DNA from: Acidimicrobiales bacterium
Lineage (GTDB): Bacteria; Actinomycetota; Acidimicrobiia; Acidimicrobiales; VFJN01
Direction: 5' to 3'
Length of the DNA: 64,000 nt
NCBI GenBank assembly: GCA_035697515.1
Contig: DASSCS010000101.1
Span: forward strand, 17,540-81,539
The translations under genes and the position numbers were made by a program. This document shows positions 8,204 through 57,031 of the stretch, one piece after another (within the stretch, counting starts at the first letter, position 1; the number at the start of each line of letters is the position of its first letter). Below the pieces are notes generated by a model, which did no database searches, had not been told where the DNA came from, and saw only the letters and a list, made by a program, of their open reading frames with translations.

Positions 8204-8204
8204 G

Positions 8205-11581: not shown

Positions 11582-11582
11582 G

Positions 11583-11730: not shown

Positions 11731-11744
11731 CAGCCGCGGTGATG

Positions 11745-41272: not shown

Positions 41273-42037
41273 TCATCGCGCCACCTCCAGCTCGCCGAGG
41301 TAGGCGCGTTCGAGCGTCCGGCTGTCGCTGCGCAGCTCGTCGGCGGTTCCCCGGAGCACGATGCTGCCGCGGTCGAGGACGGCCGCCTCGTCGGCCACGT
41401 CGAGCGCGAGCCTGACGTGCTGCTCGACGAGCACGACGGCGGCGCCGTGGTCGCGGGCGATCGTGCGCACGGTGTCGAAGAGCGTCTCGACGACGAGGGG
41501 GGCCAAGCCCATGCTCATCTCGTCGACGAGCAGCACCCGGGGCCGCTGGATCAGGGCCCGGGCCATGGCGAGCATCTGCTGCTCACCACCGGAGAGCGCA
41601 CCGGCCGCCAGGCCCCAGCGCTTGTCCAGCGCAGGGAAGATGTCGAGGAGGTCGCGCGGCGCGGGGCCGCCCCGGGACCTCGCGACCTCGAGGTTCTCCT
41701 CGACGGTCAGCGTCGCGAAGAGCGACCGGTCGTCGGGGACGAGCACCACGCCGGCGCGGCTGGCGGCGACGGCGTTCCCGCTGCGCAGCGTGACTCCGTC
41801 CACGGTCGCTCGTCCGGCACGCGCCGGGAGCAGCCCGGCCAGTGTGAGCAGCAGCGTCGACTTGCCGGCGCCGTTCGGGCCGAGCAGCGCGAGCACGGTG
41901 CCCGCGTGCACGTCGAGGTCCAGGTCGCGGAACACGACCGTGGCGCCGTGGCCCCCGCTGAGGCCTGCGCACTCGAGCCGGACGCTCGTCGCCTCGGTCG
42001 CGTCGGCTCCCGCCGCAGTCGCTCGACGCTCGTTCAT
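41273..42037 (-). CDS. branched-chain-amino-acid-type ABC transporter ATP-binding protein (LivF-like)
   Basis: The ATG overlaps the upstream stop (ATGA). Walker [10 protein letters not shown], signature LSGGEQQML. Confidence 0.9.
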
Positions 42038-44787
42038 GCCGTCGCCACCTCGCTCTCGTGCATCGTGCCGAGGTACGCCTCGGCGACCGCGCGGTCGGCC
42101 CGGATCGCGTCCGGCGGTCCCTCGGCGATGACCTCTCCGAAGTCGAGCACGTAGACGTGTTCGCACACGTTGAGCACGAGGTTGACGTCGTGGTCGACGA
42201 GGAGCATGGCGGCGCCCGCCGAGCGGATGGTGCGGATGCGCTCGCCGAGCCATGCGCTCTCGTCGCTGTCGAGCCCGGCGGCAGGTTCGTCGAGCAGCAG
42301 GACCGCAGGGTCCGCCACGCACGCACGGGCGATCGAGACGAGCTGGCGCTCACCCTGGCTCAGCGCACCCGCCGGGCGGTCGCGCAGCCCCGAGATGCCG
42401 ACGTTGTCGAGCGCCCGTGCCACCGCGGCGCGGCGGTCGGTGTGGCGGCGCCCCGACGCGGCAACGCTGACGTTCTCCTCGACCGAGAGGTCGCCGTAGA
42501 GCTCGAGCGACTGGAACGTGCGGGCGAGGCCGGCGCGCACGCGAGCGTGCGGGGCGAGCGTGTCGATGCGCCGTCCGCCGAGCTCGACTGACCCCCTGGC
42601 CTCGGCGAAGCCGCTGACGGCGTCGATGACGCTGGTCTTGCCAGCCCCGTTCGGTCCGATGAGCCCCACGATCGTGCCGCCGTCGATGCGGAGCGTCACG
42701 TCGTTGACGGCGACGACACCGCCGTAGCGCACCGTGAGGTGGTCGATCCGGAGGGCGGCGGCACCATCCACCGGCGCGACGGCCGCGGGCGCGGCGGCCG
42801 TGGGCGCGACGGCCGCGACCGCCCGGCGCTCGACGCCGGCACCGCCGGCGCTTCGGCTCGACCTCCAGCGTGCCCAGCGGTCCGCGAGCTGGTGGCCCGC
42901 AGCGGCGATGCCCTCGGGGTTGACGATGAGGGTCACGATGAGGAGGACGCCGGTGATGACCTGGAACCACTCGCCGAGGTCCACCCAGCGGTCGAGGGCG
43001 ATGAACATGATGCCGGTGGACGCGATGATGCCGGCGCTGATGCCGCCCCAGACCGACGTGATGCCGGCCAGGTAGGCGGTCGACAGCAGCGCGAGCCCGC
43101 CGATCGCGGTGAACGAGTCGAACGTGACGACCCCCCGGCGGTACGCCAGCAGGCCGCCCCCCAGCCCGGCGATGAACGAGGCGAGCGCGAAGCTGAGGAC
43201 CTTCACGCGCACGACGTTGACCCCGGCGGCTGCGGCCGAGCGCTCGTTGGCCCGGACGGCGAGCATGGCCGAGCCGAGCGTGCTCCGCCGCAGGGCGGCG
43301 ACGCCCAGGGCGACGGCCACGAGGGTGACGAGGCACACGAGGCCGAACTCGATCCTCGGGAACTCCTGGCCGGACCCGATGCCCAGGTCGATGCCGAACA
43401 TCGAGGGCGGGGTGACGCGGGCGCCCGAGCTCGGGACGATGTCGGAGTTGCGGAACCAGACCGCCTCGATGGCGTAGGCCAGCGCCAATGTCACCACGCC
43501 GAGCGTGAGGCCCCGCGTCCGCAGGGCCGGCAGGCCCACAACCACCCCGATGGCGGTGGAGACGAGCGCGGCCAGCAGGGGCGCGAACGGGAAGGGCACG
43601 CCCCAGTCCTCGGTGAGCATGCTGAGGGTGAACGCCGCGGTGCCGGCGAGGGCGAGCTGGGCCAGCGACACCTGGCCGGCGTAGCCCGTGACGACGACGA
43701 GCGAGAGCCCGATGACCGCGGCGATGAACGTGCTGATCACCGCGGCGCGCCACGTCCCCGCCGTGAGCGCCAAGGCCAGCAAGCCGACGACCGATCCGGC
43801 GATCATGGGGAGGAGGAGGGACCGCGGGCGGGGCGCGTAGCCCAGACGCTGCCGGGTGAGGCCGCCGCGCACGGGCATCCCGCCGCCGACGAGCACCAGC
43901 GCGACGAGGATGACGATCAGCGGCACGAGCTCGGCCGCCCCGGTCTGGGGCATCCACGAGACGTCCGACGCCAGCGACAGCGCCTCGGCCTGCAGCATCC
44001 CGATGGCGATGCCGGCGGCCACGATCGTCACGATGCTCTGGAACCGTCCCACGACGGCGGCGGCGAGCGCCGGGACGACGAACAGGGTGTAGGTCACGGG
44101 CGTGAGCGGGTTCACGGGGGCGATGAGGATGCCGGCGATGCCGGCGACCATCGCGCTGATCATCCAGTTGACGAGGGCGATGCGGTCGGGCGAGACGCCG
44201 CTGACGAAGGCGCCCGTCTGCGACTCCGCCGTCGCCCGCGTCAGCAGCCCGAAGCGCGTGTACCGGAAGCCGGCCGAGAGCACGACCGCGAGGACGACGA
44301 CGGTGAGCGCGAGGTAGAACCGGTCGGACAGCACGATCACCTCGCCCAGCTCCCAGCGGTCGACCGGGAAGATCGGCCGGACGCTCACGGTGTTGGTGCC
44401 CTGGCGGATCGCCAGCACGCCCTGGATCACCACGAGGACGCCGAGCGACGCGACCGCCCGGGCCAGCGGGGGCGCAGCGCGGAGCGGCCGGAACACCAGC
44501 AGGTAGAGCAGCGCGCCCAGCACGGCCGCGATGACCAGCGAGAGCGCGACGGCCGGAGCGAAGGCGAGCTCCCGGCCGAGGTCGACGGTCTTCGGGAGCC
44601 CCGGGACCGGAACGAGCAGCTCGCCGCGGCGCAGGCCCGCGTAGGTGTACGCCACGTACAGAGCCAGCGCGCCCGTCGCGAAGTTCACGACGCCCGAGGC
44701 GCGGTAGGTGATCACGAGGGCGAGCGCGAGGGCGGCGAACACGCCCCCGCTGCCGAGGCCGAGCAAGAGGGAAGCGACGTGGTCCAC
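42034..44787 (-). CDS. fused LivH-like permease / LivM-like permease / LivG-like ATPase (917 aa)
   Basis: One uninterrupted ORF. LivH-like region with FRPLRAAPPLARAV, LivM-like region with VTGYAGQVSLAQLALAG, then GPNGAGKTS...LSQGERQL. Confidence 0.85.
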   Translation of the reverse strand: MDHVASLLLGLGSGGVFAALALALVITYRASGVVNFATGALALYVAYTYAGLRRGELLVPVPGLPKTVDLGRELAFAPAVALSLVIAAVLGALLYLLVFRPLRAAPPLARAVASLGVLVVIQGVLAIRQGTNTVSVRPIFPVDRWELGEVIVLSDRFYLALTVVVLAVVLSAGFRYTRFGLLTRATAESQTGAFVSGVSPDRIALVNWMISAMVAGIAGILIAPVNPLTPVTYTLFVVPALAAAVVGRFQSIVTIVAAGIAIGMLQAEALSLASDVSWMPQTGAAELVPLIVILVALVLVGGGMPVRGGLTRQRLGYAPRPRSLLLPMIAGSVVGLLALALTAGTWRAAVISTFIAAVIGLSLVVVTGYAGQVSLAQLALAGTAAFTLSMLTEDWGVPFPFAPLLAALVSTAIGVVVGLPALRTRGLTLGVVTLALAYAIEAVWFRNSDIVPSSGARVTPPSMFGIDLGIGSGQEFPRIEFGLVCLVTLVAVALGVAALRRSTLGSAMLAVRANERSAAAAGVNVVRVKVLSFALASFIAGLGGGLLAYRRGVVTFDSFTAIGGLALLSTAYLAGITSVWGGISAGIIASTGIMFIALDRWVDLGEWFQVITGVLLIVTLIVNPEGIAAAGHQLADRWARWRSSRSAGGAGVERRAVAAVAPTAAAPAAVAPVDGAAALRIDHLTVRYGGVVAVNDVTLRIDGGTIVGLIGPNGAGKTSVIDAVSGFAEARGSVELGGRRIDTLAPHARVRAGLARTFQSLELYGDLSVEENVSVAASGRRHTDRRAAVARALDNVGISGLRDRPAGALSQGERQLVSIARACVADPAVLLLDEPAAGLDSDESAWLGERIRTIRSAGAAMLLVDHDVNLVLNVCEHVYVLDFGEVIAEGPPDAIRADRAVAEAYLGTMHESEVATA

Positions 44788-44902
44788 GGCAAGCGTCTCC
44801 GAACGTCAGGGAGGAGGGCGGGTCGGGCGGGAAGCCCCCCGGTGGTCGCCGTGCGCCGCCGGAGACAGCGCACGGCGACCGGGGAAGGGGCACCGTGGCC
44901 CG

Positions 44903-46216
44903 TTACAGCCCTTCGACGATGTCCGACGAGTCGACGGGCTCGTAGCTGGCGGGGTTGCCCTCGGCGTCGAGCGTGGCCCGCAGCGAGTTGTTCGAGCACA
45001 CGGCCGGCTGGTCCGGGAACGCCGTCCCGCCGCACTGGAACGTGAGGCCGTCGGCCCCGGGGTAGTCGGCCTCGTCCATCGACTTGATCGCCTCCGCCGC
45101 GGCCTCCGGGGTGATGTCGTCCGCGATCCCCTCGAGGGCTGCGGCGAGCGACGCCACCGTGGTGTACGCGCCCATGGCGAGGGCGTTCTCGACGTCCTCG
45201 ACGTCCTCACCGTAGGCGTCCATCACCTCCTGGTAGAGCTGGTACGCCGGGTCGTCGGTCGCGCCGACGGCCATGGTGGCGGTGAGCGAGATCCCCTCGA
45301 GCTGGTCGCCCGGCACCGCCTCGCGCGTGGCATCGGTGATGCACTGCGAGATCGAGGTGATCTGGCCCTCGTAGCCGACGGCGTTGAGCCCCTGGATCGC
45401 GGCGATGCAGAAGGCGTCGTTGCCGATGATCTGCACGACACCCGCGTCGCTCTCGGCGACCTCCTGCATCTGCGAGGTCATGTCGGCCGTGCCCGGCGGG
45501 ATCTTGACGAGCTCGTACTCGAGCCCGGCGTTCCCGAGGACGGCGTCCGCGGCACCGGATTCGAACGAGGCGTTCGCCTGGGGGACGTCGATGTTGACGA
45601 AGGCGATCTTGTCGGTGCCCTCGCTCTCGGCCACGGCGATCGGAACCCCGAACAGCGTGGCGAGCGGGTTGACCATGGTGAAGCTCGTCTCGCCGTCGCT
45701 GAGGAGGTCCTCGGCGCTGGTCTGGAAGAACAACGTCGGCACCCCGGCGGCGTGCAGCGGCTCCCAGACCGCGTCGGCCACCGCGGACTGGCTGAGGGCG
45801 ACCGCCACGACCTGCTCCTCGACCATCTGGTTGGCGCAGTTGGTCCCGCCGGCCGGGTCGGCGCCCGTCTCGCAGGTCACGATCTCGATCGGCCGGCCGC
45901 CAACGCCACCGCGGTGGGTGTTCCAGTACTCGGCCGTGGCCTCGGCGGTGCGGAGCTCGTCGGTGTTGTCGAACGCCTGCGTGGCGCCGTCGGAGACCAT
46001 CGCGATCCTGACCGGCTCACCCGACGCGGCGTCCTCGGGCCCGAGCAGGTCGGTGGCCTCGGAGCCGGACGTGGTCTCGTCGCCCGCTGTCGACGCGTCG
46101 TCGTCATCGCCGCCGCACGCTGCGACCGCGAGCAGCAGCACGGGCAGGACCGCCAGGGCGATCCCCCGCCGGGGCGACCCGCCGCGGCGCCCTGTCGCCT
46201 CCCCCGGCTTCTCCAT
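44903..46216 (-). CDS. ABC substrate-binding lipoprotein, Leu/Ile/Val-binding (type I PBP) family
   Basis: ATG preceded by AGGAGGGGGCAC. Signal SPRRGIALAVLPVLLLAVAACGG (lipobox, possible twin-arginine). Confidence 0.85.
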   Translation of the reverse strand: MEKPGEATGRRGGSPRRGIALAVLPVLLLAVAACGGDDDDASTAGDETTSGSEATDLLGPEDAASGEPVRIAMVSDGATQAFDNTDELRTAEATAEYWNTHRGGVGGRPIEIVTCETGADPAGGTNCANQMVEEQVVAVALSQSAVADAVWEPLHAAGVPTLFFQTSAEDLLSDGETSFTMVNPLATLFGVPIAVAESEGTDKIAFVNIDVPQANASFESGAADAVLGNAGLEYELVKIPPGTADMTSQMQEVAESDAGVVQIIGNDAFCIAAIQGLNAVGYEGQITSISQCITDATREAVPGDQLEGISLTATMAVGATDDPAYQLYQEVMDAYGEDVEDVENALAMGAYTTVASLAAALEGIADDITPEAAAEAIKSMDEADYPGADGLTFQCGGTAFPDQPAVCSNNSLRATLDAEGNPASYEPVDSSDIVEGL

Positions 46217-46541: not shown

Positions 46542-47378
46542 CTAGAGGGTGGGCCCGGTGCGCGCGGCGTCGAGCGGGCGGATCATCCCGTCCTGGACGA
46601 ACGACGCGACCAGCGAGCCGTCGGGCCGGAACACGTTCCCGGTCCCGTAGCACCGCCCGCGCCCGGCATAGGGGCTGTGGTGCGAGAGCAGCAGCCACTG
46701 CCCGGCCGGGGCCGGCTCGTGGAAGGTGAGCGTGTGGCTGACCACCCCGGTCGAGACCGTGACGTGCGCCTGGGCCTGCCCGAGCCCGGGATGGGGCCGC
46801 ATCGCGGTGGCGATGAGGAAGCCGTCGGTGGCGAACGCCAGCAGCGCCTGGTCGATGGCGGCGTCGTCGGGCGCACCGACGAAGCGCGTCCAGACGCAGA
46901 GGTCGGGCGGGCCGACCGCCTCGGGATCGTTCACGTCGACGTCGCCCGCGATGCGCACCTGCCAGGCGCCCGCGTCGTCGCCTCCGCCGGTGCCGCCCTC
47001 GGGGCCCGGCGAGGTGGGGGCGGGGTCGGCGTGACGGATGAAGTCCGGCTCGTCCGCGCTCAGCAGCACCAGCGAGCGGGCGCACAGCCGGTCGTCCTGG
47101 CTGAGCGACACCGTGCTGCTCGCGAACGCGCGACCCGTGTGCATGCGGTCGACCGCGATGTCGACGGGCGCGTCCGGCCTGCCGGGGCGGGCGAAGATCG
47201 TGTGCACCGTCTTGACGCGCTTGCCGTCCTGACCGGCCAGGCCGGCGACGACCGACTGCGCCAGCAACTGGCCCCCGAAGATCACCCCGGGGCCGGCAGC
47301 GGCGTTGCCGGCTCGGTAGCGGTCGGGGCCGAGCGGTTCGAGGGTGAGCGCCCCGACGAGGCTGTCGATGGTGAGCAC
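46542..47378 (-). CDS. acyl-CoA thioesterase II (TesB-like, double hotdog)
   Basis: 278 aa. FGGQLLAQS, TGRAFASSTV, LLAFATDGF. Confidence 0.8.
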   Translation of the reverse strand: MLTIDSLVGALTLEPLGPDRYRAGNAAAGPGVIFGGQLLAQSVVAGLAGQDGKRVKTVHTIFARPGRPDAPVDIAVDRMHTGRAFASSTVSLSQDDRLCARSLVLLSADEPDFIRHADPAPTSPGPEGGTGGGDDAGAWQVRIAGDVDVNDPEAVGPPDLCVWTRFVGAPDDAAIDQALLAFATDGFLIATAMRPHPGLGQAQAHVTVSTGVVSHTLTFHEPAPAGQWLLLSHHSPYAGRGRCYGTGNVFRPDGSLVASFVQDGMIRPLDAARTGPTL

Positions 47379-47420: not shown

Positions 47421-48617
47421 TCAGGCCGTGGCCGGCACCGCGACCCGCATGAGTCGGGCGAGGTTCCCGCCCATGATGGCGGCGACGTCGTCGTCCGGGA
47501 GGCCGTCGGGCAGGTGGTCGACGTAGCTGCACGGCTCGGCCAGGCCCTCGGGGTGGGGGTAGTCGGAGCCGAACAGGAGGTGATCGGCGCCCATGACGTC
47601 GACGAGCTGCTCGATGTCGTCCTCGTGGAACGGGCTGACGTAGACGTTGCGCCTGAACGCGTCGACCGGGTCCTCGTCGAACGCCTGGGGCATCTTCCTG
47701 TGGACGTCCTCGAGGTGCTCGACGAACGGCGTCACCCAGTCGCCGCCGTTCTCGATCGACGCGACCCGCAGCTCGGGGAACCGCGTGAAGGCACCGTGGC
47801 AGACGAACGCGGCCATGCTGTCGTCAATGGGCCGCGAGGCCATGGTGAGCATGCGGAACGGGTCGGGCCGGAACGGCAGCATCTCCATCGGCCCCGTCCA
47901 GTCGCTCTGGTACCGCGAGTAGCCGCTGTCGGAGGCATGCATCGACACCAGCACGTCGTTGTCGACCACGGCCTGCCAGAACGGGTCGAACTCCTCGAAG
48001 CCGAACGAGCGGGAGCCCCCGTACGCCGGCACCGGCGCGGGCCGGACCAGCACCGTCCGCGCCCCGCGCTCGACCACCCACTCAAGCTCCTCGATGGCCT
48101 TCTCCACGATGGGCAGGCTGATGACCGGCGTGGCGAAGATGCGGTCCTCGTAGTCGAACGTCCACTCCTCGTACAGCCACTCGTTGAGGGAGTGGATCAC
48201 CGCGTGGATCAACACCGGGTCGTCACGCATGCGCTCCTCGAGCAGGCTGGCCAGCGTGGGGAACATGAGTGCCCGGTCGACGCCGAGCTCGTCCATGAGC
48301 TCGAGGCGAGGTCCCGGCTCGCGGAACGCCGGGATGCTGCGCATCGGCTCGCCCACGAGCTCGCGGTACGACTTCCCCTCGGGGTTACCGCTGCGGAAGT
48401 ACTCCTCCTGCGCGCCCGGGCGGGCCACCACCTCGAACGTCGGGTTCGGGATGTACTCGCTGATCGTGCCGCGGACCACGATCTTCGTGCGCCCCCGGAC
48501 GTCGACGTAGTCGACCGCGCCCTTGTACCGGTCGGGCAGGTGGCGGGTGAACGCCTCCCTGGTCTCGTACAGGTGGTTGTCCGCATCGAAGACCGGGAAA
48601 CCGAGCCGTCTCGTCAT
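47421..48617 (-). CDS. amidohydrolase-2 family protein
   Basis: FPVFDADNHLYE, MHASDSG, FGSDYPHPEG. The start is ATG 48617 (preferred) or TTG 48653. Confidence 0.8.
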   Translation of the reverse strand: MTRRLGFPVFDADNHLYETREAFTRHLPDRYKGAVDYVDVRGRTKIVVRGTISEYIPNPTFEVVARPGAQEEYFRSGNPEGKSYRELVGEPMRSIPAFREPGPRLELMDELGVDRALMFPTLASLLEERMRDDPVLIHAVIHSLNEWLYEEWTFDYEDRIFATPVISLPIVEKAIEELEWVVERGARTVLVRPAPVPAYGGSRSFGFEEFDPFWQAVVDNDVLVSMHASDSGYSRYQSDWTGPMEMLPFRPDPFRMLTMASRPIDDSMAAFVCHGAFTRFPELRVASIENGGDWVTPFVEHLEDVHRKMPQAFDEDPVDAFRRNVYVSPFHEDDIEQLVDVMGADHLLFGSDYPHPEGLAEPCSYVDHLPDGLPDDDVAAIMGGNLARLMRVAVPATA

Positions 48618-48635
48618 GCTCAGCACGGTAGGTTT

Positions 48636-48762: not shown

Positions 48763-49980
48763 ATGACCGCAGTCATGCAGGGCGTCCGCATCCTCGAGGT
48801 CGCCGAGCACACGTTCGTCCCTGCGGCATCGGCGCTCCTCGCCGACTGGGGCGCCGAGGTCGTCAAGGTCGAGCACGTCGAGCGGGGCGATGCCATGCGG
48901 GGCCTGGCGTCCAGCGGGCTCGCGATCATGGGCACCAGCGTCCACGTGCTGCTCGAGCACTCGAACCGGGGCAAGCAGAGCCTGGCGCTCGACCTCACGT
49001 CGGAGGAGGGCCTCGAGATCCTGTACCGGCTGGCGGCGACGTGCGACGTCTTCCTCACCAACAAGCTCCCGAGCGTCCGGTCGAAGCTCCGCATCGACGT
49101 CGACGACGTCCGGGCCCACAACCCGCGCATCATCTACGTCCGCGGCACTGGCCAGGGTGAGCGGGGCCCCGACGCCGACCGCGGGTCCTACGACTCGCTC
49201 GCCTACTGGTGCCGGGCGGGCATCGCCGCCGGCATGAAGCAGCCCGAGTACGACTACGTGCCTGCGCCACCGGCGCCGGCGTTCGGCGACTCGATCGGGG
49301 CGATGACGATCGCCGGCGGGATCATGGGGGCGCTGTTCCACCGCGAGCGCACCGGCGAGGCGACCACCGTGGACGTGTCGCTGCTCGGCATCGGCATGTG
49401 GTCGATGGGCGCCGCCCTGGCGCTGTCGCTCCAGCACGGCGTCGGGTGGACTCCCCCACCGCCGCACGCGCCCACCGGCAACCCGCTCAGCGCCATCTAC
49501 ACGACGAAGGACGGGAAGTACCTGGCGCTCACGTGCCTCCAGGCGGCGCGGTACTGGCCGGAGGTCTGCGCGGTGATCGAACGGCCCGAGCTGGCGACCG
49601 ACGAGCGCTTCGCCGACGCCGAGTCGATCAGGCAGAACGTCGCCGTCGCGGCCGACCTGCTCCGCGACGCCTTCGCCCAGCGTGAGGCGAGCGAGTGGCG
49701 CGAGCGGCTCGCCGGCTTCAGCGGCCAGTGGGCGATGGTGCAGGACACGCTCGAGGCGTCGACCGACCCGCAGACGGTCGCCAACGGCTACGTGCAGGAC
49801 TGCGAGACCGCGGAGGGCGTGGCGTTCCAGCTGGCCGCCGCCCCGGTCCAGTACGACGGGCAACCCGCGGCGCCCCGGCGGGCCCCGGCGTTCAACGAGC
49901 ACGGCGACGCCATCCTCGGCGACCTCGGCCTCGACTGGGACGCGATCGTGGACCTGAAGGTCCGCGGCGTGGTGGCCTGA
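48763..49980 (+). CDS. family III (CaiB/BaiF) CoA-transferase
   Basis: 405 aa. GVRILEVAEHTFVPAASALLADWGAEVVKVE and RGTGQGERGPDADRGSYD. Confidence 0.9.
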   Translation: MTAVMQGVRILEVAEHTFVPAASALLADWGAEVVKVEHVERGDAMRGLASSGLAIMGTSVHVLLEHSNRGKQSLALDLTSEEGLEILYRLAATCDVFLTNKLPSVRSKLRIDVDDVRAHNPRIIYVRGTGQGERGPDADRGSYDSLAYWCRAGIAAGMKQPEYDYVPAPPAPAFGDSIGAMTIAGGIMGALFHRERTGEATTVDVSLLGIGMWSMGAALALSLQHGVGWTPPPPHAPTGNPLSAIYTTKDGKYLALTCLQAARYWPEVCAVIERPELATDERFADAESIRQNVAVAADLLRDAFAQREASEWRERLAGFSGQWAMVQDTLEASTDPQTVANGYVQDCETAEGVAFQLAAAPVQYDGQPAAPRRAPAFNEHGDAILGDLGLDWDAIVDLKVRGVVA

Positions 49981-50082: not shown

Positions 50083-50910
50083 ATGAGCACGTTCGACGCA
50101 TTCAGGTACGACGGCAAGCGAGCGCTCGTCGTCGGCGGCGCCACCGGGATGGGCGCGGCGGTCGCGGAGCTGGCCAAGGACGCCGGTGCCGAGGTCGTCG
50201 TCATGGACCGCGCCGAGGTCGCCCTCTCGGGCGTCAAGGCCATCCGGGTCGACCTCGCCGCCAAGGCGTCCATCGACGCCGCCGTCGACGAATGCGGCGG
50301 CCCGGTGCATGCGCTGTTCTCGTGCGCCGGGGTGGCCGACGGCACCCCCGGCATCGAGCGGATCAACTTCATCGGGCACCGCCACCTCATCGACCGGCTG
50401 CTCGACGGTGACCTGCTCCCGCGCGGCGCCGCCATCGGGCTCATCTCCTCCGCGGCAGGGTTCGGGTGGCAGGCGAACCTGCCCCGCCTGCAGGAGTACC
50501 TCGACGTCGTCGACTTCGACGAGGCCACGCGCTGGGCCCAGGAGAACGGCAAGGCCGACTACATGTGGAGCAAGCTGGCGATCAACGCCTACGTCGCCCG
50601 CGAGGCCTTCGGGCTGCTCACGCGGGGCGTGCGCATCAACGCCATCCTCCCCGGCCCGACCGACACGCCCCTCGCCCGAGCCAACGAGGAGACGTGGCTC
50701 ACCTTCGGCGCCGACTACCGCGGCGAGGTCGGCATCGAGGCCTCCACGCCGCTCGAGCAGGCCTACCCGCTGGTGTTCCTGTGCAGCGACGCGGCCCGGG
50801 GCATCACCGGCATCACCATGGTCACCGACGCCGGGTACTTCAGCTCCGGGATCGCCGGGTCGTTCCCGGCGGCGACACCGGTCGTCGAGTTCCTGTCCAG
50901 CACCTTCTGA
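50083..50910 (+). CDS. short-chain dehydrogenase/reductase (3-alpha-HSD-like atypical SDR)
   Basis: GKRALVVGGATGMG, YMWSKLAI, INAILPGPTDTP. Confidence 0.8.
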   Translation: MSTFDAFRYDGKRALVVGGATGMGAAVAELAKDAGAEVVVMDRAEVALSGVKAIRVDLAAKASIDAAVDECGGPVHALFSCAGVADGTPGIERINFIGHRHLIDRLLDGDLLPRGAAIGLISSAAGFGWQANLPRLQEYLDVVDFDEATRWAQENGKADYMWSKLAINAYVAREAFGLLTRGVRINAILPGPTDTPLARANEETWLTFGADYRGEVGIEASTPLEQAYPLVFLCSDAARGITGITMVTDAGYFSSGIAGSFPAATPVVEFLSSTF

Positions 50911-50917
50911 CCACTCC

Positions 50918-52549
50918 GTGCGCCCGCTTCCGCAGGTCACGCCCACCAACGAGTGGTTCTGGACGTCGGGCGCCGACAGTCGCCTCCGGATCCAGGGCTG
51001 CCGGGACTGCAAGGCGCTCGTCCATCCGCCGGTGCCGGTGTGCCCGAACTGCCGCAGCCGGGCATGGGAGCCCACCGTCGTGTCGGGACGCGGCACCGTC
51101 GTGGCGTTCACCGTCAACCACCACCAGTGGCTGCCGGGGCTCGAGCCGCCGTACGCGATCGCCAACGTCGCGCTGGCGGAGGACCCGACGGTGCACCTCA
51201 CGACGAACATCGTCGGGTGCGACCCCGACGCGGTCCACGTCGGCCAGCAGGTCAGCGTCCGCTTCGAGCAGCACGACGACGTCTGGTTGCCGATGTTCGA
51301 GCCGGCGGGCGGGACCGACACCGTGGACCGGGTGGGCGAGCCGCAGCGTCCGGCGCCCCGCCCGCCGGCCACCGGCGACCGGTTCGAGCACCGGGCGGTG
51401 CTGTCCGGCGTCGGCCGCTCAGCGCTGGGGCGCCGGCTGATGGTCGATCCGCTGTCCCTCACGATCGACGCCTGCCTGGCCGCGGTGGCGGACGCGGGTC
51501 TCAATCTCGACGACATCGACGGGCTGTCCACGTATCCGGGCGCCGTGGGGATGGGCATGAGCGAGGGCGGCGTCACCGCCGTGGAGGAGGCGCTGCGGCT
51601 GCGGCCGACGTGGATCAACGGCGGTGGCGACCTGCCCGGGCCGGGTGGATCGGTGATAGCGGCGATGCTCGCCGTCGCCGGCGGACTGTGCCGGCACGTC
51701 CTGTGCTTCCGCACCGTGTGGGAGTCGACCTTCGCGGCCCTCCGCCTCGGCGCGGGCGGCGCTGGCGGCCGGGTGTCGGGGCCCATGCAGGAGTGGCGCG
51801 CGCCCTTCGGCGCCCTGTCGGCCGCGAACTGGATCGGCATGAACGCCAACCACTATCTGTACCGGTACGGCGCCACCCGCGAGGTGCTGGGCTGGATCGC
51901 GCTCAACGGCCGGGCCAACGCCGCCCGCAACCCCGCGGCGATCTACCGCGAGCCGATGAGCATGGACGACTACCTGTCGGCCCGGCCCATCACCAGCCCG
52001 TTCGGGCTCTACGACTGCGACGTCCCGTGTGACGCGTCGATCGCGGTCGTCGTGTCCGACGCGTCGGTCGCGGCCGACCTGCCGAAGCCCGCCGTACGGG
52101 TCGAGGCCGTGGGCACCCAGATCACCGAGCGGATCTCGTGGGACCAGGGGACGATCACCCACGAGCCCCAGGTCCTCGGCCAGTCGGCGCACCTGTGGAC
52201 CCGCACCAGCCTGCGGCCGGGCGACGTCGACGTGGCGCTCGTCTACGACGGGTTCACCTTCAACGCCGTCTCGTGGATCGAAGCGCTGGGGTTCTGCGGC
52301 ATCGGCGAGGCCAAGGACTGGCTCGACGGCGGCCGACGCATCGCGCTCGACGGCGAGCTACCGGTCAACCCGCACGGTGGCCAGCTCTCCGAGGGACGCA
52401 CCCATGGCTTCGGCTTCATCTACGAGGCGATGGCCCAGCTCCGCCACGAGGCCGGCGAGCGCCAGGTGGCGGGCGCCCGGACGGCGGTCGTCACCTCGGG
52501 CGGCGGCACACCGTCGGGGGTCCTGCTCCTGCGCCGAGATCAGACCTGA
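50918..52549 (+). CDS. fusion of a DUF35 OB-fold/zinc-ribbon domain with an SCP-x/Ltp-type thiolase-fold domain
   Basis: N-terminal CRDCKALVHPPVPVCPNC plus an OB-fold segment, a Pro-rich linker, then a thiolase fold (DCDVPCDASIAVVVS, NPHGGQLSEGRTHGFG). The GTG start has no clear Shine-Dalgarno sequence. Confidence 0.8.
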   Translation: MRPLPQVTPTNEWFWTSGADSRLRIQGCRDCKALVHPPVPVCPNCRSRAWEPTVVSGRGTVVAFTVNHHQWLPGLEPPYAIANVALAEDPTVHLTTNIVGCDPDAVHVGQQVSVRFEQHDDVWLPMFEPAGGTDTVDRVGEPQRPAPRPPATGDRFEHRAVLSGVGRSALGRRLMVDPLSLTIDACLAAVADAGLNLDDIDGLSTYPGAVGMGMSEGGVTAVEEALRLRPTWINGGGDLPGPGGSVIAAMLAVAGGLCRHVLCFRTVWESTFAALRLGAGGAGGRVSGPMQEWRAPFGALSAANWIGMNANHYLYRYGATREVLGWIALNGRANAARNPAAIYREPMSMDDYLSARPITSPFGLYDCDVPCDASIAVVVSDASVAADLPKPAVRVEAVGTQITERISWDQGTITHEPQVLGQSAHLWTRTSLRPGDVDVALVYDGFTFNAVSWIEALGFCGIGEAKDWLDGGRRIALDGELPVNPHGGQLSEGRTHGFGFIYEAMAQLRHEAGERQVAGARTAVVTSGGGTPSGVLLLRRDQT

Positions 52550-52561
52550 GCGCCCAGCCGA

Positions 52562-53008
52562 TCACGCCTCGCGGTCGGTCGCCGCGGCGACGACCGGGTC
52601 GCGCCACACTACGGCCTCGCCGTCGAGGACGGTCGGTCCACCCTCGATGGCGATGGTCGTGCGCAGCCGCACCACGGGCTTGTCGGCCCGCGCCTCGAGC
52701 ACCTCGACCTCGGCGGTGATCTGGTCGCCCGGGCGGACGGGCGCCAGGTACCGCCACGACGTCTCGAGGAAGACGCTCCCCGGTCCGGGCAGGTCCTCGG
52801 CGACGACCGCGTTGAGCAGGCCGGAGGTGACACCGCCTTGGACGATGATGCCGCCGAACCGGCTCGCGGCCGCGAGCTCCGCGTCGTAGTGGACGGGGTT
52901 GCGGTCACCGGTCAGCTCGGTGAACAGGCCGATGTCGCGGGTTGTCACGCGCCGCGACCGTCGGGCGCGGTCGCCCACCGCGAGCGATCGGCGGGGGGAG
53001 CTCTGCAT
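52562..53008 (-). CDS. MaoC-like (R)-specific enoyl-CoA hydratase (hotdog fold)
   Basis: ATG preceded by GTGAGGAGGATCACG. FTELTGDRNPVHYD motif. Confidence 0.85.
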   Translation of the reverse strand: MQSSPRRSLAVGDRARRSRRVTTRDIGLFTELTGDRNPVHYDAELAAASRFGGIIVQGGVTSGLLNAVVAEDLPGPGSVFLETSWRYLAPVRPGDQITAEVEVLEARADKPVVRLRTTIAIEGGPTVLDGEAVVWRDPVVAAATDREA

Positions 53009-53039: not shown

Positions 53040-53149
53040 GGTCGGCCTGGCGACCACCGCGGCTCCGAGGTCTTGGTGGTGTCGAGCCGCTGGGCCACGG
53101 TGCTCTTGCCGGCCCCGATGGGCCCCGTGATCACGATGAGCTGTGCCAC
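53040..53149 (-). pseudogene. 5' remnant of a P-loop NTPase/kinase gene
   Basis: VAQLIVITGPIGAGKSTVAQRL (Walker A at the N-terminus) is followed by non-protein-like sequence that runs in frame into the MaoC gene. Confidence 0.35.
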
Positions 53150-54324
53150 CACCGCCAGTCTGGGGCAGCGGCCTCGTGAACCCCGCGTGCGCCTCGATGC
53201 GCCGCGTCCCACCAGTCCGTGATCTGGACGTAGACGTCGGGGTGGTTGGCGAGCGCGATGTGGTTGACCTTGGGGCAGAGGCGGACGCTGACCCTCGGGA
53301 ACAGGGCCGGCTCGTCGCCGCCGAGCCGGCCGCTGGCGCTCGACGCCGTCACCAGCGCGTCGCCGAGGAGGCGGTTGACGAGAACGGGACGATCGGCGTC
53401 CGGTTCGTGGGCGAGCGAGCCGGCGACCACGAGGTATCGGGCCCGCCGGGGAACGCGCACCCGGTGCCGCGCGGGGCGCTCGGTGGCGCCCGGGTCGCGC
53501 TCGTGCCAGTCCTCGTCGAGCACCGCACCCCAGCGAAGGTCCTTGATGCCGTCGCTGCGCCGGTCGAGCCCGGCACCGATCAGCCGGGTGACGGGGGTCG
53601 GCACCGACCACAACGCCGCGCTGGTGAGGTTGGCGATCACCTCGAGGGAGGCGCCGCTGTTGGGCACGCCCAGCAGCACCACGCGCCTCACCTTGGCGGT
53701 CCACGGCCCGCGGCGTCGCACCCGGTCGGCGAGGGTGGCGCGCCCCCTGCCGTAATGGCAGGCACTCCGAACAACCAGCCCGCCCATGCTGTGACCGATG
53801 AGGTCGATCTCGCGCACCCGCACCGGCCAGGCCCGCACCAGCCGCTGGAGCCCCGCGGCGAGCGCGCGCCCGTTGGTCGAGATGTGGCGCCCGGTGTTGT
53901 AGCGGACGTACACGGGGGTCACCCCGCGGTCACGTGCCAGCAGCTCGCCGTAGCCGAACTCGCGCCGGCCGCCGATCCTCCACACCGTCTCCGACGACAT
54001 GAGCCCGTGCACCAGCACGCAAAGCCGGGCCCCGGCGTCCGGGAGCGCCTGCCGGAGCCCGCGGCGATCGAGCGGGAGTGCGTCGCCCGACGCCGTGCAG
54101 AACGTCAGAGGCACGGCGAAGGAGGAGCCGCTCTCGGCCAGCGCGTCGCCGAACAGGCCGTTGAGCACGGCCCGCGCGTCCGCGCCCCGACCGGGCAACG
54201 ATCTCAGGAGCCGGACCACCAGGTCGATCGTCGCCGGTGTCGGTACCGACCCCGACCGTCGGCCGCGCGGTCCCGTCACGACCTGGCGACGCGGCGGGGA
54301 CTCGTTCACCCACCCACTCTGCAT
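53131..54324 (-). CDS. alpha/beta hydrolase (lipase/esterase-like)
   Basis: Nucleophile elbow GHSMGG. 397 aa. Confidence 0.75.
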   Translation of the reverse strand: MQSGWVNESPPRRQVVTGPRGRRSGSVPTPATIDLVVRLLRSLPGRGADARAVLNGLFGDALAESGSSFAVPLTFCTASGDALPLDRRGLRQALPDAGARLCVLVHGLMSSETVWRIGGRREFGYGELLARDRGVTPVYVRYNTGRHISTNGRALAAGLQRLVRAWPVRVREIDLIGHSMGGLVVRSACHYGRGRATLADRVRRRGPWTAKVRRVVLLGVPNSGASLEVIANLTSAALWSVPTPVTRLIGAGLDRRSDGIKDLRWGAVLDEDWHERDPGATERPARHRVRVPRRARYLVVAGSLAHEPDADRPVLVNRLLGDALVTASSASGRLGGDEPALFPRVSVRLCPKVNHIALANHPDVYVQITDWWDAAHRGARGVHEAAAPDWRWWHSSS

Positions 54325-54427: not shown

Positions 54428-57031
54428 TCAGCCCATGCCCAGCGCGTGTCCCCGCTGCACGGCCTCCCCACGTGAGTTGACGCCGAGCTTGCGGTAGATG
54501 GCCTTGACGTGGGAGCGGACCGTGTTGACCGACACGTAGAGCTCACCCGCGATCTCCGTGCACGTGAGGCGGCTGGCGAGGTAGCGGAGCACGGTGGCCT
54601 CCCGGTCGCTCAGCAGCTCGAGCGGCACCTCGCCGGAGACCGGCGGGCGCGAAGGCACGATCCGGTGGGCGGCAGCGAGGAGGTCGGCGATGTAGTCGGC
54701 GAGCGGGCCGTGGGCGGGGAGCGATTCCAGGAGCTTCCACAGCGCCGGGCCCTCGGCCAGGAACGTGCGCCGGAAGCCGGCAGGCGCGGCGCGGGCCAGT
54801 GCCAGGCGCAGGGCCTCGTGCGCACGCGCCGGCGCGGTGCCGGCGGCGGCCAGCGCGCTGAGGACCCCGCCCTCGACCTCCGACCGCCTGGTCAGCCGGC
54901 GGCCGGCCATCGGACCGAGGATGTCGAGGGCGCCGGCGGGGTCGTCGAGCGCAAGCCGGACACGGGCCGCGAGCAGGGCCGACGAGTCGGAGGGCGGAAG
55001 CCTCGGCAACAGCGCCCCGGCCGCCCGGTGGTCACCTCGATCGAGCGCGAGGCGCAGGTCGACCTGGTCGATGCGCGCCAGCACCGGGTCGGTGGCGCGG
55101 GGAAGCACCGCCCGGGCCTGTTCGACGAGCCGGCCGGCCGCGCCTCCGTCGCCCCGGGCGTTCACGATCGTCGCGAGCTGGAGGTGGGCCAGCAGCTCGA
55201 GCAGGGGGCGACGCCCGTGCTCGACGGTGCGCATCACCTGCTCGACGTGGGCTTCAGCGTCACCGAGTCGGTCCCGCTCGGTCGCGACCATGGCGAGCGT
55301 CAGATGCGGCTCGGCCCGCCCGAAGTTCCGCGGGTGGAGGCCGAGCTCGTCGGCGGCGTCGAGGGCTGCGCCAGCCAGCCGTTCGGCGTCGGTCAGCTCG
55401 CCGCGCAGGGCCGCGACCTGGGACGCGTACGCCGGTAGCCGCACCTCGGAGAGCACCGGCGGATGGACCCCGGCCCGCACGGCCTCGATGGCGGCGTCCA
55501 CGCCGTCGAGGTTGTCGAGCCACAGCTGCGACTGGATCGCCATGTTGGGGAGCGCCTCGACCCAGGCGCCGTGCGCAGGGCCCTCCTCCAGGACGGCCTC
55601 GGCGCGGCGGGCGTGGTCCGCCGCAGCGCGGGGGTCGCCGTGCTGGAGTCGGTCGAAGCTCCGTGCGCCGTGGAGGAGCAGCCGGGTGTCCCGGTCGAGC
55701 TCGTCCTCGCGGGCCTCGACCTGGCGCAGCCACGGCTCGGCGACGTCGCCGTGCCCGGTCGCATTGAGCACGATCGTGCACGCGAGCACCGCCCGGGGCG
55801 CGGCCTCGAGCTGGGCGGCGCCGCGCTCCCTGATCCAGGCGCGGGCCGTGGCGCCGCCGGTCAGCTGGTCCTCGAGCGAGAAGGTCTCCTGCACGTACGA
55901 CTCGAGCCGGGCCACGGCCGCATCGACGTCGCCCGCTCTCATGCTGTGGTGGACGGCCTTCATCAGTTCGCCGCGACGTCCGTACGCCTCGGCGGCGGCA
56001 CGGTGGATCTCCGGGACCCGCTCGGGGTCAACGGCCCGCAGCCTGGCCTGGAGGTACTGCCCGAACAGATGGTGATATCGGTGCCAGCCGCCGACGCGGT
56101 CGAGCGACACCAGGAAGAGGTTGGCTGCGTCGACGCGCTGCAGCAGTTCGGCGCTGCCATGCCGGTCCCGCACGGCGTCGCACAGCGCGGCGTCGAACGT
56201 CTCGAGCTCGGCCGTGACGGTCAGGAACTCGACGATCTCCGGCGGCTGGAGCTCGATGACCTCGTTGACGAGGAAGTCGACCAGGACGCGATCGGTCTCG
56301 GCCAGGCCACGGAGCAGCCCGGCCGGGTTCTGGTTGGCCCGGAGCCACAGGCCCGCCAGGTGCATCCCGGCGGTCCAGCCTTCGGTGACCGATGTGATCT
56401 GTTCGAGCTCGGGGTCGGTGACCTCGACACCCAGCCCCGCGAGGAGCGCCCTGGCTTCGGCGGTGGTGAACCGCAGGTCGGCCTGCCGCAGCTCGAGCAG
56501 CCTGCCCTGCAGCCGCAGCCTGCCGACCGGGAACGCGGGGTCGCTGCGACTGCCGAGCACGAGGCGCACCCGCGGCGGGAGCGCATCGACGAAGGCCTTC
56601 ATGGCCGCGGGCCCCGGCTCGGCCAGGTGGAAGTCGTCGACGACGATGACACCGGGCTGGCCGAGCCTGCCCAGCTCGTTCGCCAGGCCGACGGCGTGCT
56701 GGTCGTGGTCGTCGCCCTCGACGAGCTCCGCGGCTGCCAGCTCGAGCTCGGTCCACGTCAGCCCGACGCTCCTCACCAGGTCGTTCCAGAAGCAGCCGGC
56801 GTCTGCGTCGGTGCCGTCACAGGACATCCACGCCAACCGCCCGCCCAGCCCGTCGACCCACTGGGTCAGCAGAGACGTCTTGCCCGACCCCGGCGCCCCG
56901 ACGACGAGCGTGAGCGGACGATCGGTCGCGGCATCGAGTCGCGCCAACAGATCGTCGCGGCGGATCGTGGCATTGGGAACCTGGGGAACGCTGAACTTCG
57001 TCCGCGCAGAGACAGCGTGCCCGCTGTGCAC
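54428..57031 (-). CDS. LAL-type (large ATP-binding LuxR/MalT family) transcriptional regulator
   Basis: GAPGSGKTS Walker A, a long helical-repeat middle region, and the C-terminal LuxR HTH TEIAGELYVSVNTVRSHVKAIYRKLG. GTG start. Confidence 0.9.
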   Translation of the reverse strand: MHSGHAVSARTKFSVPQVPNATIRRDDLLARLDAATDRPLTLVVGAPGSGKTSLLTQWVDGLGGRLAWMSCDGTDADAGCFWNDLVRSVGLTWTELELAAAELVEGDDHDQHAVGLANELGRLGQPGVIVVDDFHLAEPGPAAMKAFVDALPPRVRLVLGSRSDPAFPVGRLRLQGRLLELRQADLRFTTAEARALLAGLGVEVTDPELEQITSVTEGWTAGMHLAGLWLRANQNPAGLLRGLAETDRVLVDFLVNEVIELQPPEIVEFLTVTAELETFDAALCDAVRDRHGSAELLQRVDAANLFLVSLDRVGGWHRYHHLFGQYLQARLRAVDPERVPEIHRAAAEAYGRRGELMKAVHHSMRAGDVDAAVARLESYVQETFSLEDQLTGGATARAWIRERGAAQLEAAPRAVLACTIVLNATGHGDVAEPWLRQVEAREDELDRDTRLLLHGARSFDRLQHGDPRAAADHARRAEAVLEEGPAHGAWVEALPNMAIQSQLWLDNLDGVDAAIEAVRAGVHPPVLSEVRLPAYASQVAALRGELTDAERLAGAALDAADELGLHPRNFGRAEPHLTLAMVATERDRLGDAEAHVEQVMRTVEHGRRPLLELLAHLQLATIVNARGDGGAAGRLVEQARAVLPRATDPVLARIDQVDLRLALDRGDHRAAGALLPRLPPSDSSALLAARVRLALDDPAGALDILGPMAGRRLTRRSEVEGGVLSALAAAGTAPARAHEALRLALARAAPAGFRRTFLAEGPALWKLLESLPAHGPLADYIADLLAAAHRIVPSRPPVSGEVPLELLSDREATVLRYLASRLTCTEIAGELYVSVNTVRSHVKAIYRKLGVNSRGEAVQRGHALGMG

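Follow-up and report, generated by a model that had tools for sequence, protein, structure and literature searches.

To our knowledge, Ltp2 and Sal are the only characterised aldolases that have a thiolase fold and depend on DUF35; each acts on the side chain of steroids, with a catalytic acid of its own. In TcLtp2 of T. curvata, Tyr294 of the YDHF motif is the base, His296 lies in the oxyanion hole and Tyr344 is the acid, and in CtSal of Comamonas testosteroni, Tyr302 and Cys304 of YDCY are used and Gln352 occupies the Tyr344 position (PMC12329534). Both enzymes are two-protein systems. In a 64,000-nucleotide stretch from an Acidimicrobiales bacterium (the window; positions 17,540 to 81,539 of contig DASSCS010000101.1, assembly GCA_035697515.1), an open reading frame (ORF) at 50918–52549 joins a DUF35 module to a thiolase-fold domain that has lost both catalytic cysteines of thiolases. 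This protein, here called the fusion, appears to be a single-chain version of the Ltp2–ChsH2(DUF35) and Sal–Shy(DUF35) C–C lyases. We put at roughly 55% the reading that an acid is activated with coenzyme A (CoA), β-hydroxylated by an oxygenase of the ARO type and then cleaved in a retro-aldol reaction by the fusion, all of these functions being predicted from sequence.

Domain architecture and active site of the fusion

The fusion is composed as follows (coordinates in the window, strand, feature).

50918–52549, plus: whole ORF, consisting of DUF35, linker and thiolase fold without catalytic cysteines (translation, Pfam, homologues, AlphaFold2)
50960–51070, plus: zf-ChsH2 rubredoxin-like zinc ribbon, residues 15–51 (PF12172, E 5e-10, 39.4 bits against a gathering score of 23.2)
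51080–51268, plus: OB_ChsH2_C OB-fold, residues 55–117 (PF01796, E 2.8e-16, 59.6 bits against a gathering score of 27.1)
51308–51388, plus: Pro-rich interdomain linker, about residues 131–157, between the DUF35 match (ending at residue 130) and the Ltp2 match (starting at residue 160)
51389–52540, plus: SCP2/Ltp-type thiolase-fold domain, residues 158–541 (6OK1_A sequence match, Foldseek, NF005892 below cutoff)
51629–51646, plus: thiolase nucleophile position, D-L-P-G-P-G, residues 238–243, without cysteine (alignment to 6ESQ_A, TcLtp2, CtSal and 4U4E)
52244–52255, plus: Y443-D444-G445-F446, counterpart of thiolase HDCF, Ltp2 YDHF and Sal YDCY (alignments, conservation)
52394–52408, plus: G493-R494-T-H496-G497, with Arg494 at the position of Ltp2 Tyr344, Sal Gln352 and the His of thiolase GHP (alignments, conservation)

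The ORF is stop-free over 543 residues, in a window whose GC content is 70–75% throughout. The open frame extends back to 50186, and this extension is a Pro/Arg/Ser-rich, non-coding read-through that overlaps the gene for a short-chain dehydrogenase/reductase (SDR, 50083–50910) in a different frame. More than 120 database proteins of 531–564 residues (one of 650) align with the fusion from end to end at 82–90% identity, the closest being from metagenome-assembled genomes (MAGs) of Acidimicrobiales. The gene is therefore intact, with no split, hidden frameshift or assembly error, a possibility that an earlier note on this DNA, made from the letters alone, had raised against its own proposal.

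Sequence and structure comparisons agree on the identity of both halves. In a search of the PDB, residues 160–541 match 6OK1_A (Ltp2) at E 3e-54 and 33.5% identity, and residues 7–130 match 6OK1_B (ChsH2(DUF35)) at E 1.8e-22; behind these come 4U4E, which is uncharacterised, the Sal–Shy(DUF35) aldolase 9MYR and true thiolases. All the matches are separate chains, none fused. Both DUF35 domains score above their Pfam gathering thresholds, and the translation contains a C4 zinc site, C28-x2-C31-x10-C42-x2-C45 (50999–51052), with the canonical DUF35 spacing of C-x2-C-x10-C-x2-C (PMC12329534). Thiolase_C_1 is recognised at residues 428–532 (E 8e-30, 103.9 bits against a gathering score of 28). An AlphaFold2 model of the whole two-domain chain, built on a 40-sequence alignment, has a pLDDT of 91 and a pTM of 0.90. 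Foldseek places 6OK1_A first (TM 0.90, 31% identity), followed by 4U4E and 9MYR_A (Sal, TM 0.85), and TM values of 0.80–0.90 to 6OK1, 4U4E, 9MYR, 6HRV and 6ESQ assign the catalytic domain to the SCP2/Ltp-type thiolase fold. A tblastn search of the window for a second DUF35 or thiolase-like gene returned solely the fusion ORF itself. The architecture described in the earlier note, a DUF35 module joined by a Pro-rich linker to an SCP-x/Ltp thiolase fold, is thus borne out by the translation, Pfam and the 6OK1 matches.

We mapped active-site residues with the printed pairwise alignments and a MAFFT alignment that included reconstructed reference sequences (6ESQ_A, TcLtp2, CtSal, 4U4E). The nucleophilic-cysteine motif C-A-S-G of the thiolase 6ESQ_A lies opposite L-P-G-P-G-G in the fusion, where the earlier note had read GPGGS by eye, and no cysteine occupies this site in any of the family representatives examined. 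The acid/base cysteine of the SCP2-type H-D-C-F motif lies opposite Gly445. The earlier note was right that the second cysteine is missing, although it had looked for it in the C-terminal CxG loop and not at HDCF, the site that matters in SCP2-type proteins. True thiolases (SCP2 type, BbsB, archaeal acetoacetyl-CoA thiolase) combine C-x-S/T-G with H-D-C-F, and the fusion has neither motif. Because both catalytic cysteines are absent, thiolysis by its catalytic domain is impossible.

It is scarcely credible that the protein has remained a thiolase, or works as an acyltransferase of the BbsB or PhlC kind, by means of a differently placed cysteine such as Cys367. This residue, in a D-C-D context, is at least 90% conserved, and NCBIfam and JGI name relatives 'acetyl-CoA acetyltransferase', but TcLtp2, an aldolase, and true thiolases share the D-C motif without using it in catalysis, the sequence of the nucleophile loop is L-P-G-P-G-G, and no NCBIfam thiolase model attains its cutoff on the fusion protein.

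The remaining active-site positions are strongly conserved. Across a 40-sequence alignment reaching down to 31% identity, Y443 and D444 are invariant and G445, F446, N484, G493, R494 and H496 are at least 90% conserved; Arg494 stands in the context G-G-Q-L-S-E-G-R-T-H-G. Y443 aligns with the TcLtp2 base Tyr294, whereas His296 and the acid Tyr344 of TcLtp2 correspond to Gly445 and Arg494. Where Sal has YDCY with Cys304, and its DUF35 partner a C3H1 zinc site, the fusion has YDGF and C4. Two further details in the earlier note need qualification: the protein does contain the N484-P-H486-G-G motif that the note listed as kept, but relatives read NTxGG and so do not share His486; and of the Ltp2 catalytic tyrosines that it had wished to see checked, the base is retained as Y443 and the acid has become Arg494.

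In the reaction that we favour, the catalytic domain would most likely cleave a β-hydroxyacyl-CoA in the retro-aldol direction. Tyr443 of YDGF would take the proton from the β-hydroxyl, and Arg494 and His496 would stabilise the acyl-CoA enolate at the position of the thiolase oxyanion-hole His; the products would be a shortened acyl-CoA and either a ketone or an aldehyde. The zinc-ribbon/OB domain probably docks in cis on the thiolase fold and helps to shape the substrate cleft, as its counterparts do in the trans complexes.

Inert partner domains occur in steroid side-chain enzymes, and the fusion might likewise be a catalytically inert scaffold or a substrate-presenting subunit for the SDR, for the true thiolase found at some loci or for the ARO. 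In favour of such a role, both thiolase cysteines and both known aldolase acid residues have been lost; DUF35 proteins do serve as scaffolds in HMG-CoA synthase (HMGCS)/thiolase and PhlABC complexes (PMC12329534), and a true thiolase is translationally coupled to the fusion on a Streptomyces plasmid and another is present at the related locus L081. We nevertheless regard this as very unlikely, because proteins that are 33–50% identical keep Y443, D444, N484, R494 and H496 with little or no variation, which favours catalysis over an inert scaffold. Moreover, most loci lack a co-located true thiolase.

The YDGF/Arg clade and the distribution of the fusion

We scored 1.84 billion representatives, clustered at 50% identity, with the fusion protein, and 4,597 of them match at E≤1e-10. 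A motif survey of the representatives of at least 340 residues among the top 150 found YDGF together with the arginine in 37, of which 32 are unfused (~390 residues) and 5 are fused (~520–560 residues). We define a YDGF/Arg clade by Y-D-G-F plus G-G-Q-L-S-x-G-R-x-H-G, the lack of a nucleophile cysteine, and a DUF35 domain that is either fused or encoded immediately upstream. These features are shared by the fusion, the 37 representatives and examples from Rhodococcus, Streptomyces and Sphingopyxis; in Sphingomonas paeninsulae the GGQL pattern is unmatched and the arginine is seen in the alignment alone.

In a rough neighbour-joining tree this clade stands apart from the Ltp2 clade (TcLtp2 and the fused proteins P0168 and P0205), from Sal and from 4U4E/P0208. 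The NCBIfam model NF005892 (PRK07855, 'lipid-transfer protein') gives the same division: the fusion scores 245.4 bits against a cutoff of 469, and the fusion and unfused YDGF proteins together span 245–295 bits, whereas P0168 and P0205, which carry YDAF and AY-x-HG, score 493–495 bits. We take the model to represent the Ltp2 type since TcLtp2-like fused proteins pass its cutoff. By sequence comparison, then, the YDGF/Arg clade is a large and mostly unfused sister group of Ltp2 (and Sal) with no characterised member known to us, and by motif, acid tyrosine and NF005892 cutoff the fusion is not of the Ltp2 type. The earlier note had seen in it the pattern characteristic of Ltp2; YDGF in place of YDHF, Arg494 and the score of 245 bits against 469 overturn that assignment. 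DUF35 fusions occur in at least three clades, the YDGF, Ltp2-type and 4U4E-like ones. Membership of the NCBIfam families NF006102 and NF005924, which we take to correspond to M. tuberculosis Ltp3 and Ltp4, was considered and rejected at scores of 102 and 18 bits, respectively.

The fusion itself is ordinary in frequency. Relatives were confirmed in 586 of 600 candidate stretches, hence in at least 586 species-level genomes with one genome per GTDB species; those listed are mainly MAGs of Acidimicrobiia and genomes of Frankia/Parafrankia, Mycobacterium and Mycolicibacterium. Among plasmids, fused genes annotated as 'OB-fold domain-containing protein' are found in Streptomyces and Rhodococcus, at 54–62% identity. 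A split, collinear pair ('OB-fold domain-containing protein', then 'thiolase family protein') is present in Rhodococcus sp. DK17, Mycobacterium, Sphingobium, Sphingomonas, Sphingopyxis, Caulobacter and Massilia. In the split pairs inspected the genes overlap by 4 nt and YDGF is present, and GR-x-HG was seen in DK17 and Sphingopyxis; the overlap of the OB and thiolase genes falls at the point that the linker occupies in the fusion. The collinear, adjacent arrangement of the split pairs indicates that the fusion is the joined state of a common gene pair. The suspicion in the earlier note that it might be a common and already characterised family was therefore half right: it is common, and neither our literature search nor the PDB matches turned up a paper or structure describing a DUF35–thiolase fusion.

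Some genomes hold two copies. One Microthrixaceae MAG (L061) has fused copies 5–6 kb apart, at 8001–9635 on the plus strand and at ~14324 on the minus strand, with 81% and 51% identity to the window fusion. Frankia sp. AgB1.9 and F. nepalensis have two fusion paralogues each, on separate contigs (L033/L052 and L054/L064).

Gene neighbourhood and the genomic link to predicted ARO-type oxygenases

The genes surrounding the fusion in the window are the following.

42034–46216, minus: LIV-type ABC transporter, a possible uptake system (Pfam; syntenic in L081)
46542–47378, minus: TesB-like acyl-CoA thioesterase II, downstream of the ARO gene (TIGR00189, E 1.6e-34)
47421–48626, minus: Amidohydro_2 protein with ARO motifs, divergently transcribed (4DZI, PtmU3 and DitZ matches; motifs)
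48763–49980, plus: family III CoA-transferase, upstream of the fusion (PF02515, E 2e-84; PDB matches)
50083–50910, plus: SDR of 275 residues, whose stop lies 7 nt before the fusion start (Pfam, NCBIfam)
52562–53008, minus: stand-alone MaoC (R)-hydratase, convergent, 12 nt from the fusion stop (PF01575, E 2e-21)
53131–54324, minus: α/β-hydrolase-like protein (domain annotation)
54428–56947, minus: MalT/LuxR-type regulator (AAA_16, TPR_MalT, GerE), heading a minus-strand unit that ends with the α/β-hydrolase-like and MaoC genes

The Amidohydro_2 protein at 47421–48626 would provide the link to β-hydroxylation. Amidohydrolase-related dinuclear oxygenases (AROs) have been defined by the PF04909 fold with an N-terminal D-x-H and, after at least ~200 residues, a C-terminal D-x-P-H-x-D/E that characterised hydrolases and decarboxylases with this fold lack, and 4DZI has been listed as a putative ARO (PMC13154177). 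The window protein (PF04909, 83 bits) matches 4DZI at E 2e-87, PtmU3 at 2e-19 and DitZ at 2e-12. It contains F-D-A-D-N-H near the N-terminus and S-D-Y-P-H-P-E-G, with D-Y-P-H-P-E at residue 355 of 401, and by this sequence definition it is a predicted ARO and a candidate oxygenase/hydroxylase of the diiron type. Orthologues are found in 31 loci, all 31 with the C-terminal ARO motif. A second, DitZ-like Amidohydro_2 cluster (34–51% identical to 8UYR) has the motif in 25 of 26 members, and a third cluster is without it.

At least 7 kb of sequence flanks the fusion on either side in 44 loci; in 28 of these an ARO-motif gene lies no more than 8 kb away, and in 27 no more than 5 kb. The density of such genes per 100 kb peaks at 2–6 kb from the fusion, with 8.7 at 2–4 kb and 6.8 at 4–6 kb against 1.5 at 6–8 kb. 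DitZ-like AROs (E≤1e-40) are encoded on 13 of 72,556 plasmids, and 12 of these 13 are among the 21 best plasmid matches of the fusion. The best plasmid match of the window ARO itself (Streptomyces sp. N50, 64% identity) lies 9 kb from the fusion gene of that plasmid. On plasmid pGD02.2.1 of R. rhodochrous GD02, at 6.5–11 kb, the order ARO, small ORF, fusion and CoA-transferase forms one co-directional block between transposases, and in S. paeninsulae the order is α/β-hydrolase, OB, thiolase-like and ARO. The small ORF of the GD02 block (L083:7780–8016) encodes a 78-residue acidic, coiled-coil-like hypothetical protein.

Dong and colleagues reportedly found in 2019 that PtmU3 β-hydroxylates C-5 of C-19 CoA esters in platensimycin biosynthesis. 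The enzyme has been described as preparing A-ring cleavage (PMC13599519). We had predicted in advance that the PtmU3 locus would also encode a Cys-less thiolase-like protein and a DUF35 protein, and the prediction held. An environmental contig (contig_6170 of ERZ25039530; L089:10001–14229) encodes a protein 99% identical to the PtmU3 chain within a platensimycin/platencin-like diterpenoid cluster (terpene synthase, SQHop-type cyclase, UbiA, cytochrome P450s, TauD, acyl-CoA dehydrogenase (ACAD) and MaoC). The genes that follow the PtmU3 homologue directly downstream encode an AMP-binding enzyme (acyl-CoA synthetase), a 385-residue Thiolase_C_1 protein and a 133-residue zf-ChsH2/OB protein. The AMP-binding gene is read as two ORFs (11100–12176 and 12160–12669), possibly through a frameshift or sequencing error.

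A Frankia alni-type locus (L090/L091:9090–15348, including CT573213.2) has the co-directional order aldehyde dehydrogenase, SDR, ARO, 4HBT thioesterase, Thiolase_C_1, DUF35 and CoA-transferase. Its ARO is 66% identical to PtmU3, and the terminal gene encodes a 750-residue double CoA_transf_3 protein. The thiolase-like proteins of the PtmU3-linked and Frankia loci lack the nucleophile cysteine and keep Y-D. A second pair of genes, encoding an OB protein and a true thiolase, lies 5 kb upstream in the Frankia locus.

A chemical precedent comes from Ambrox catabolism, for which metabolites point to methyl oxidation, CoA ligation, C5-H hydroxylation, retro-aldol cleavage and β-oxidation, the monooxygenase and aldolase being unidentified; the same sequence of activation, hydroxylation and retro-aldol cleavage was noted for platensimycin, with the enzymes unassigned (PMC13599519). 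The recurrent neighbour set of the fusion matches this list of steps. We base neighbourhood counts on 69 loci, because a likelihood-based gene caller missed the fusion in 14 of 83. Genes clustered over all loci yield P450s, aldehyde dehydrogenases, paired ACADs, enoyl-CoA hydratases, CoA-transferases, SDRs, LIV transporters, a TetR regulator directly downstream of the fusion (16 loci) and the two Amidohydro_2 clusters. In tblastn searches with the window neighbours against 80 related loci, the Amidohydro_2 protein (59–85% identity), the CoA-transferase, the SDR and TesB were recovered repeatedly. The family III CoA-transferase recurs beside fused or split homologues, the SDR orthologue is immediately upstream of the fusion in 12 loci, and TesB is syntenic in L005, L007, L008, L049 and L081. 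The SDR, a protein like 3α-hydroxysteroid dehydrogenase (3α-HSD)/CalA whose best PDB matches, 2DKN and 1FJH, are both 3α-HSDs, is a probable operon partner of the fusion.

On this basis the pathway may be laid out in four steps. The family III CoA-transferase (48763–49980) would form the thioester from an acid substrate, the ARO (47421–48626) would hydroxylate the CoA ester in the manner of PtmU3, the fusion would cleave the hydroxylated product, and the SDR and TesB thioesterase would process what cleavage releases. Our best guess for the substrate is a bulky alicyclic, terpenoid-like or branched acid.

The earlier note had proposed a different source of the β-hydroxyl. It correctly placed a CoA-transferase and an SDR immediately upstream, both identified by Pfam, and a MaoC hydratase converging on the fusion from downstream, and it joined the latter to the fusion as a rewired module for hydration and aldol cleavage. 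In its full form this would be an Ltp2-like, steroid-type aldolase fed by the convergent MaoC protein, that is, a ChsH1/ChsH2–Ltp2 module in which DUF35 has left the hydratase and joined the aldolase. In its favour, a true MaoC domain lies next to the fusion, a MaoC hydratase precedes both Ltp2 and Sal in their pathways (PMC12329534), and MaoC genes do occur in some distant fused or split contexts, on the Streptomyces sp. NBC_00080 plasmid and ~10 kb from the homologues in DK17 and R. qingshengii. The window gene, however, is on the opposite strand in a separate transcription unit with the LuxR-type and α/β-hydrolase genes. No MaoC orthologue was found by tblastn (E<1e-10) in any of the 80 related loci, phmmer detected one weak MaoC-like gene among 82, and in L081, which is syntenic and 89% identical, a DUF559 gene takes the place of MaoC. 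A hydratase partnership for the window fusion is therefore unsupported, and MaoC is probably not part of the module. In addition, no steroid-catabolic genes (KstD, KshA, Hsa, ChsE) were recognised in the ~43 kb annotated (21.9–64 kb of the window), and the Ltp2 motif and NCBIfam cutoff are not reached. We therefore consider the steroid-type module quite unlikely, and the β-hydroxy substrate probably does not come from the adjacent MaoC hydratase.

Another kind of enolate-forming enzyme is also to be weighed, such as a decarboxylase of α-carboxy (malonyl-type) acyl-CoAs derived from gem-methyl oxidation, in which Arg494 would bind the leaving carboxylate or stabilise the enolate. TbSLP, a Cys-less relative that is among the structural matches of the fusion, has weak malonyl-CoA decarboxylase activity (PMC12329534); the highly conserved arginine stands where both known aldolases have their proton donor; and the P450, aldehyde dehydrogenase and ARO oxidases frequent nearby could build such a carboxylate. 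A decarboxylase would not, however, need the aldolase base Tyr, which is strictly conserved here, and the closest characterised relatives are aldolases. TbSLP has very little decarboxylase activity, and those who described it now suspect that it is an aldolase (PMC12329534), and the frequent aldehyde dehydrogenase neighbours suit an aldehyde product. On balance a decarboxylase seems unlikely.

Several observations weigh against β-hydroxylation by an ARO followed by retro-aldol cleavage. Both known catalytic acids, Ltp2 Tyr344 and Sal Cys304, are missing from the fusion and the Ltp2 oxyanion-hole His296 is replaced by Gly, so that its chemistry may differ from that of Ltp2 and Sal; our literature search turned up no assay of any member of the YDGF/Arg clade. 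About one-third of the full-flank loci have no ARO within 8 kb and some contexts carry MaoC or enoyl-CoA hydratases and ACADs, which means that coupling to an ARO is not universal; the NBC_00080 plasmid, for example, has a hydratase and no nearby ARO. Amidohydro_2/ARO genes abound in the host genomes, the 64-kb window alone having two, and this raises the rate at which they co-occur by chance. The ARO has no evident reductase partner, and the tightly linked, 3α-HSD-like SDR upstream has no assigned step. Finally, the PtmU3-linked thiolase-like protein belongs to a different clade (YDPN, GGCLSYAW; 34% identity over 245 residues), and the association at the PtmU3 and Frankia loci is therefore one between kinds of protein and not within one orthologous group.

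A broader proposal is more tentative, and we give it less than an even chance: that an ARO and a Cys-less thiolase-fold/DUF35 protein form a general two-step module, β-hydroxylation and retro-aldol cleavage, for CoA-activated acids with a quaternary or ring-locked α-carbon, and that the YDGF/Arg clade is the missing aldolase, with an Arg-based enolate-stabilising site unlike those of Ltp2 and Sal. If so, the module would act where ordinary β-oxidation cannot start, for example on ring A of terpenoids and resin acids.

Other features of these loci deserve mention. The LIV-type transporter of the window comprises a substrate-binding protein (44903–46216) and a fused permease/ATPase (42034–44787, minus strand), a single 917-residue ORF with two branched-chain-amino-acid-type permease domains and an ABC ATPase; L081 has the same fusion, and LIV permeases lie near the DUF35–thiolase fusion in ~19 loci. 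The second ARO-motif gene of the window (33448–34725, minus strand) has V-D-D-H near the N-terminus and D-Y-P-H-S-D, and its product shares 40% identity with DitZ (8UYR), a diterpenoid hydroxylase. The genes around it encode a luciferase-like monooxygenase, two acyl-CoA ligases and an enoyl-CoA hydratase (30913–32304 plus, 32396–33382 plus, 34822–36306 minus, 36856–37764 plus), and its surroundings look like a separate CoA-dependent oxidative module without a DUF35/thiolase-like gene of its own. Between an enoyl-CoA hydratase and an SDR gene, 37843–39207 (plus strand) encodes a 454-residue protein with two TetR_N domains, a duplicated or fused regulator. On the NBC_00080 plasmid (L086:8844–11668), the fused gene overlaps at its start, by 4 nt, with the gene for a genuine acetyl-CoA C-acyltransferase (TIGR01930, 445 bits). 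The operon further encodes two CoA-transferases, a P450, an enoyl-CoA hydratase, an ACAD, a CoA ligase and a MaoC protein of 425 residues. A promoter and terminator scan of 47.3–54.5 kb found nothing, and such a scan is uninformative at the 72% GC of this organism.

Comparison with known systems

The fusion shares the combination of an SCP2-type subunit and DUF35 acting on CoA thioesters with IpfD/IpfE, which remove the ibuprofen side chain, with the benzoylsuccinyl-CoA thiolase BbsAB, with the PhlABC acylase and with the archaeal thiolase/HMGCS/DUF35 complex; in the bbs operon, too, a family III CoA-transferase is found together with SDRs. Unlike the fusion, BbsB, PhlC and the archaeal thiolase keep the catalytic cysteine and carry out thiolysis or acyl transfer. 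All four systems are more weakly similar to the fusion (E 1e-12 to 1e-25), and the window fusion has no HMG-CoA synthase or PhlA partner.

The PtmU3-side pair and the Frankia operon resemble the window in content, with an ARO, an enzyme forming an acyl-CoA, a Cys-less Thiolase_C_1 protein with Y-D and a DUF35 protein. They differ in having two genes in the reverse order, thiolase-like and then DUF35, and in their YDPN, GGCLSYAW clade. We know of no function assigned to the thiolase-like/DUF35 pair at the PtmU3 side. Platensimycin-type chemistry needs a ring-opening C–C cleavage after β-hydroxylation of the CoA ester (PMC13599519). Closer to the fusion are the unfused YDGF/Arg pairs of DK17, Mycobacterium, Sphingomonas, Sphingopyxis, Caulobacter and Massilia, which are 42–51% identical to it, have the same motifs and the same order of DUF35 and thiolase, and often stand beside an ARO and a CoA-transferase; they differ in being two genes with a 4-nt overlap. 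The YDGF/Arg clade is very abundant in soil Actinomycetota and is found in sphingomonads too, and its link to AROs suggests candidate enzymes for ring opening by C–H hydroxylation and then retro-aldol cleavage in Ambrox catabolism and platensimycin biosynthesis. If the proposed activity is correct, thousands of genes that at present go under the names 'OB-fold domain-containing protein', 'thiolase family protein' or 'amidohydrolase' would gain a function, and the clade would offer single-chain aldolases for C–C bond biocatalysis that do without a separately expressed DUF35 partner.

The closest described systems remain the two steroid side-chain aldolases. Ltp2–ChsH2(DUF35) (T. curvata 6OK1; M. 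tuberculosis Ltp2) is the best match of both halves in sequence and fold, with an SCP2-type fold without nucleophilic cysteine, a C4 zinc-ribbon/OB DUF35 and the base Tyr in Y-D-x-F. It differs in that its DUF35 domain is borne by the MaoC hydratase ChsH2, whereas that of the fusion is in cis; the fusion, in turn, has YDGF instead of YDHF and Arg494 instead of Tyr344, falls below the NF005892 cutoff, and is without a conserved context of ChsH1/ChsH2-type MaoC, ChsE ACAD and steroid-ring genes. Genuine Ltp2-type fusions exist elsewhere (P0168, P0205), and the window fusion is not one of them. Sal–Shy(DUF35), the bile-acid C5 side-chain aldolase of C. testosteroni (9MYR), likewise lacks the nucleophile cysteine, has a DUF35 partner and keeps the base Tyr, but it is 28% identical to the fusion, its acid is Cys304 of YDCY, the Arg494 position is Gln and its DUF35 zinc site is C3H1. 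Beside these two, the Tyr, Gly and Arg of the fusion would represent a third active-site solution.

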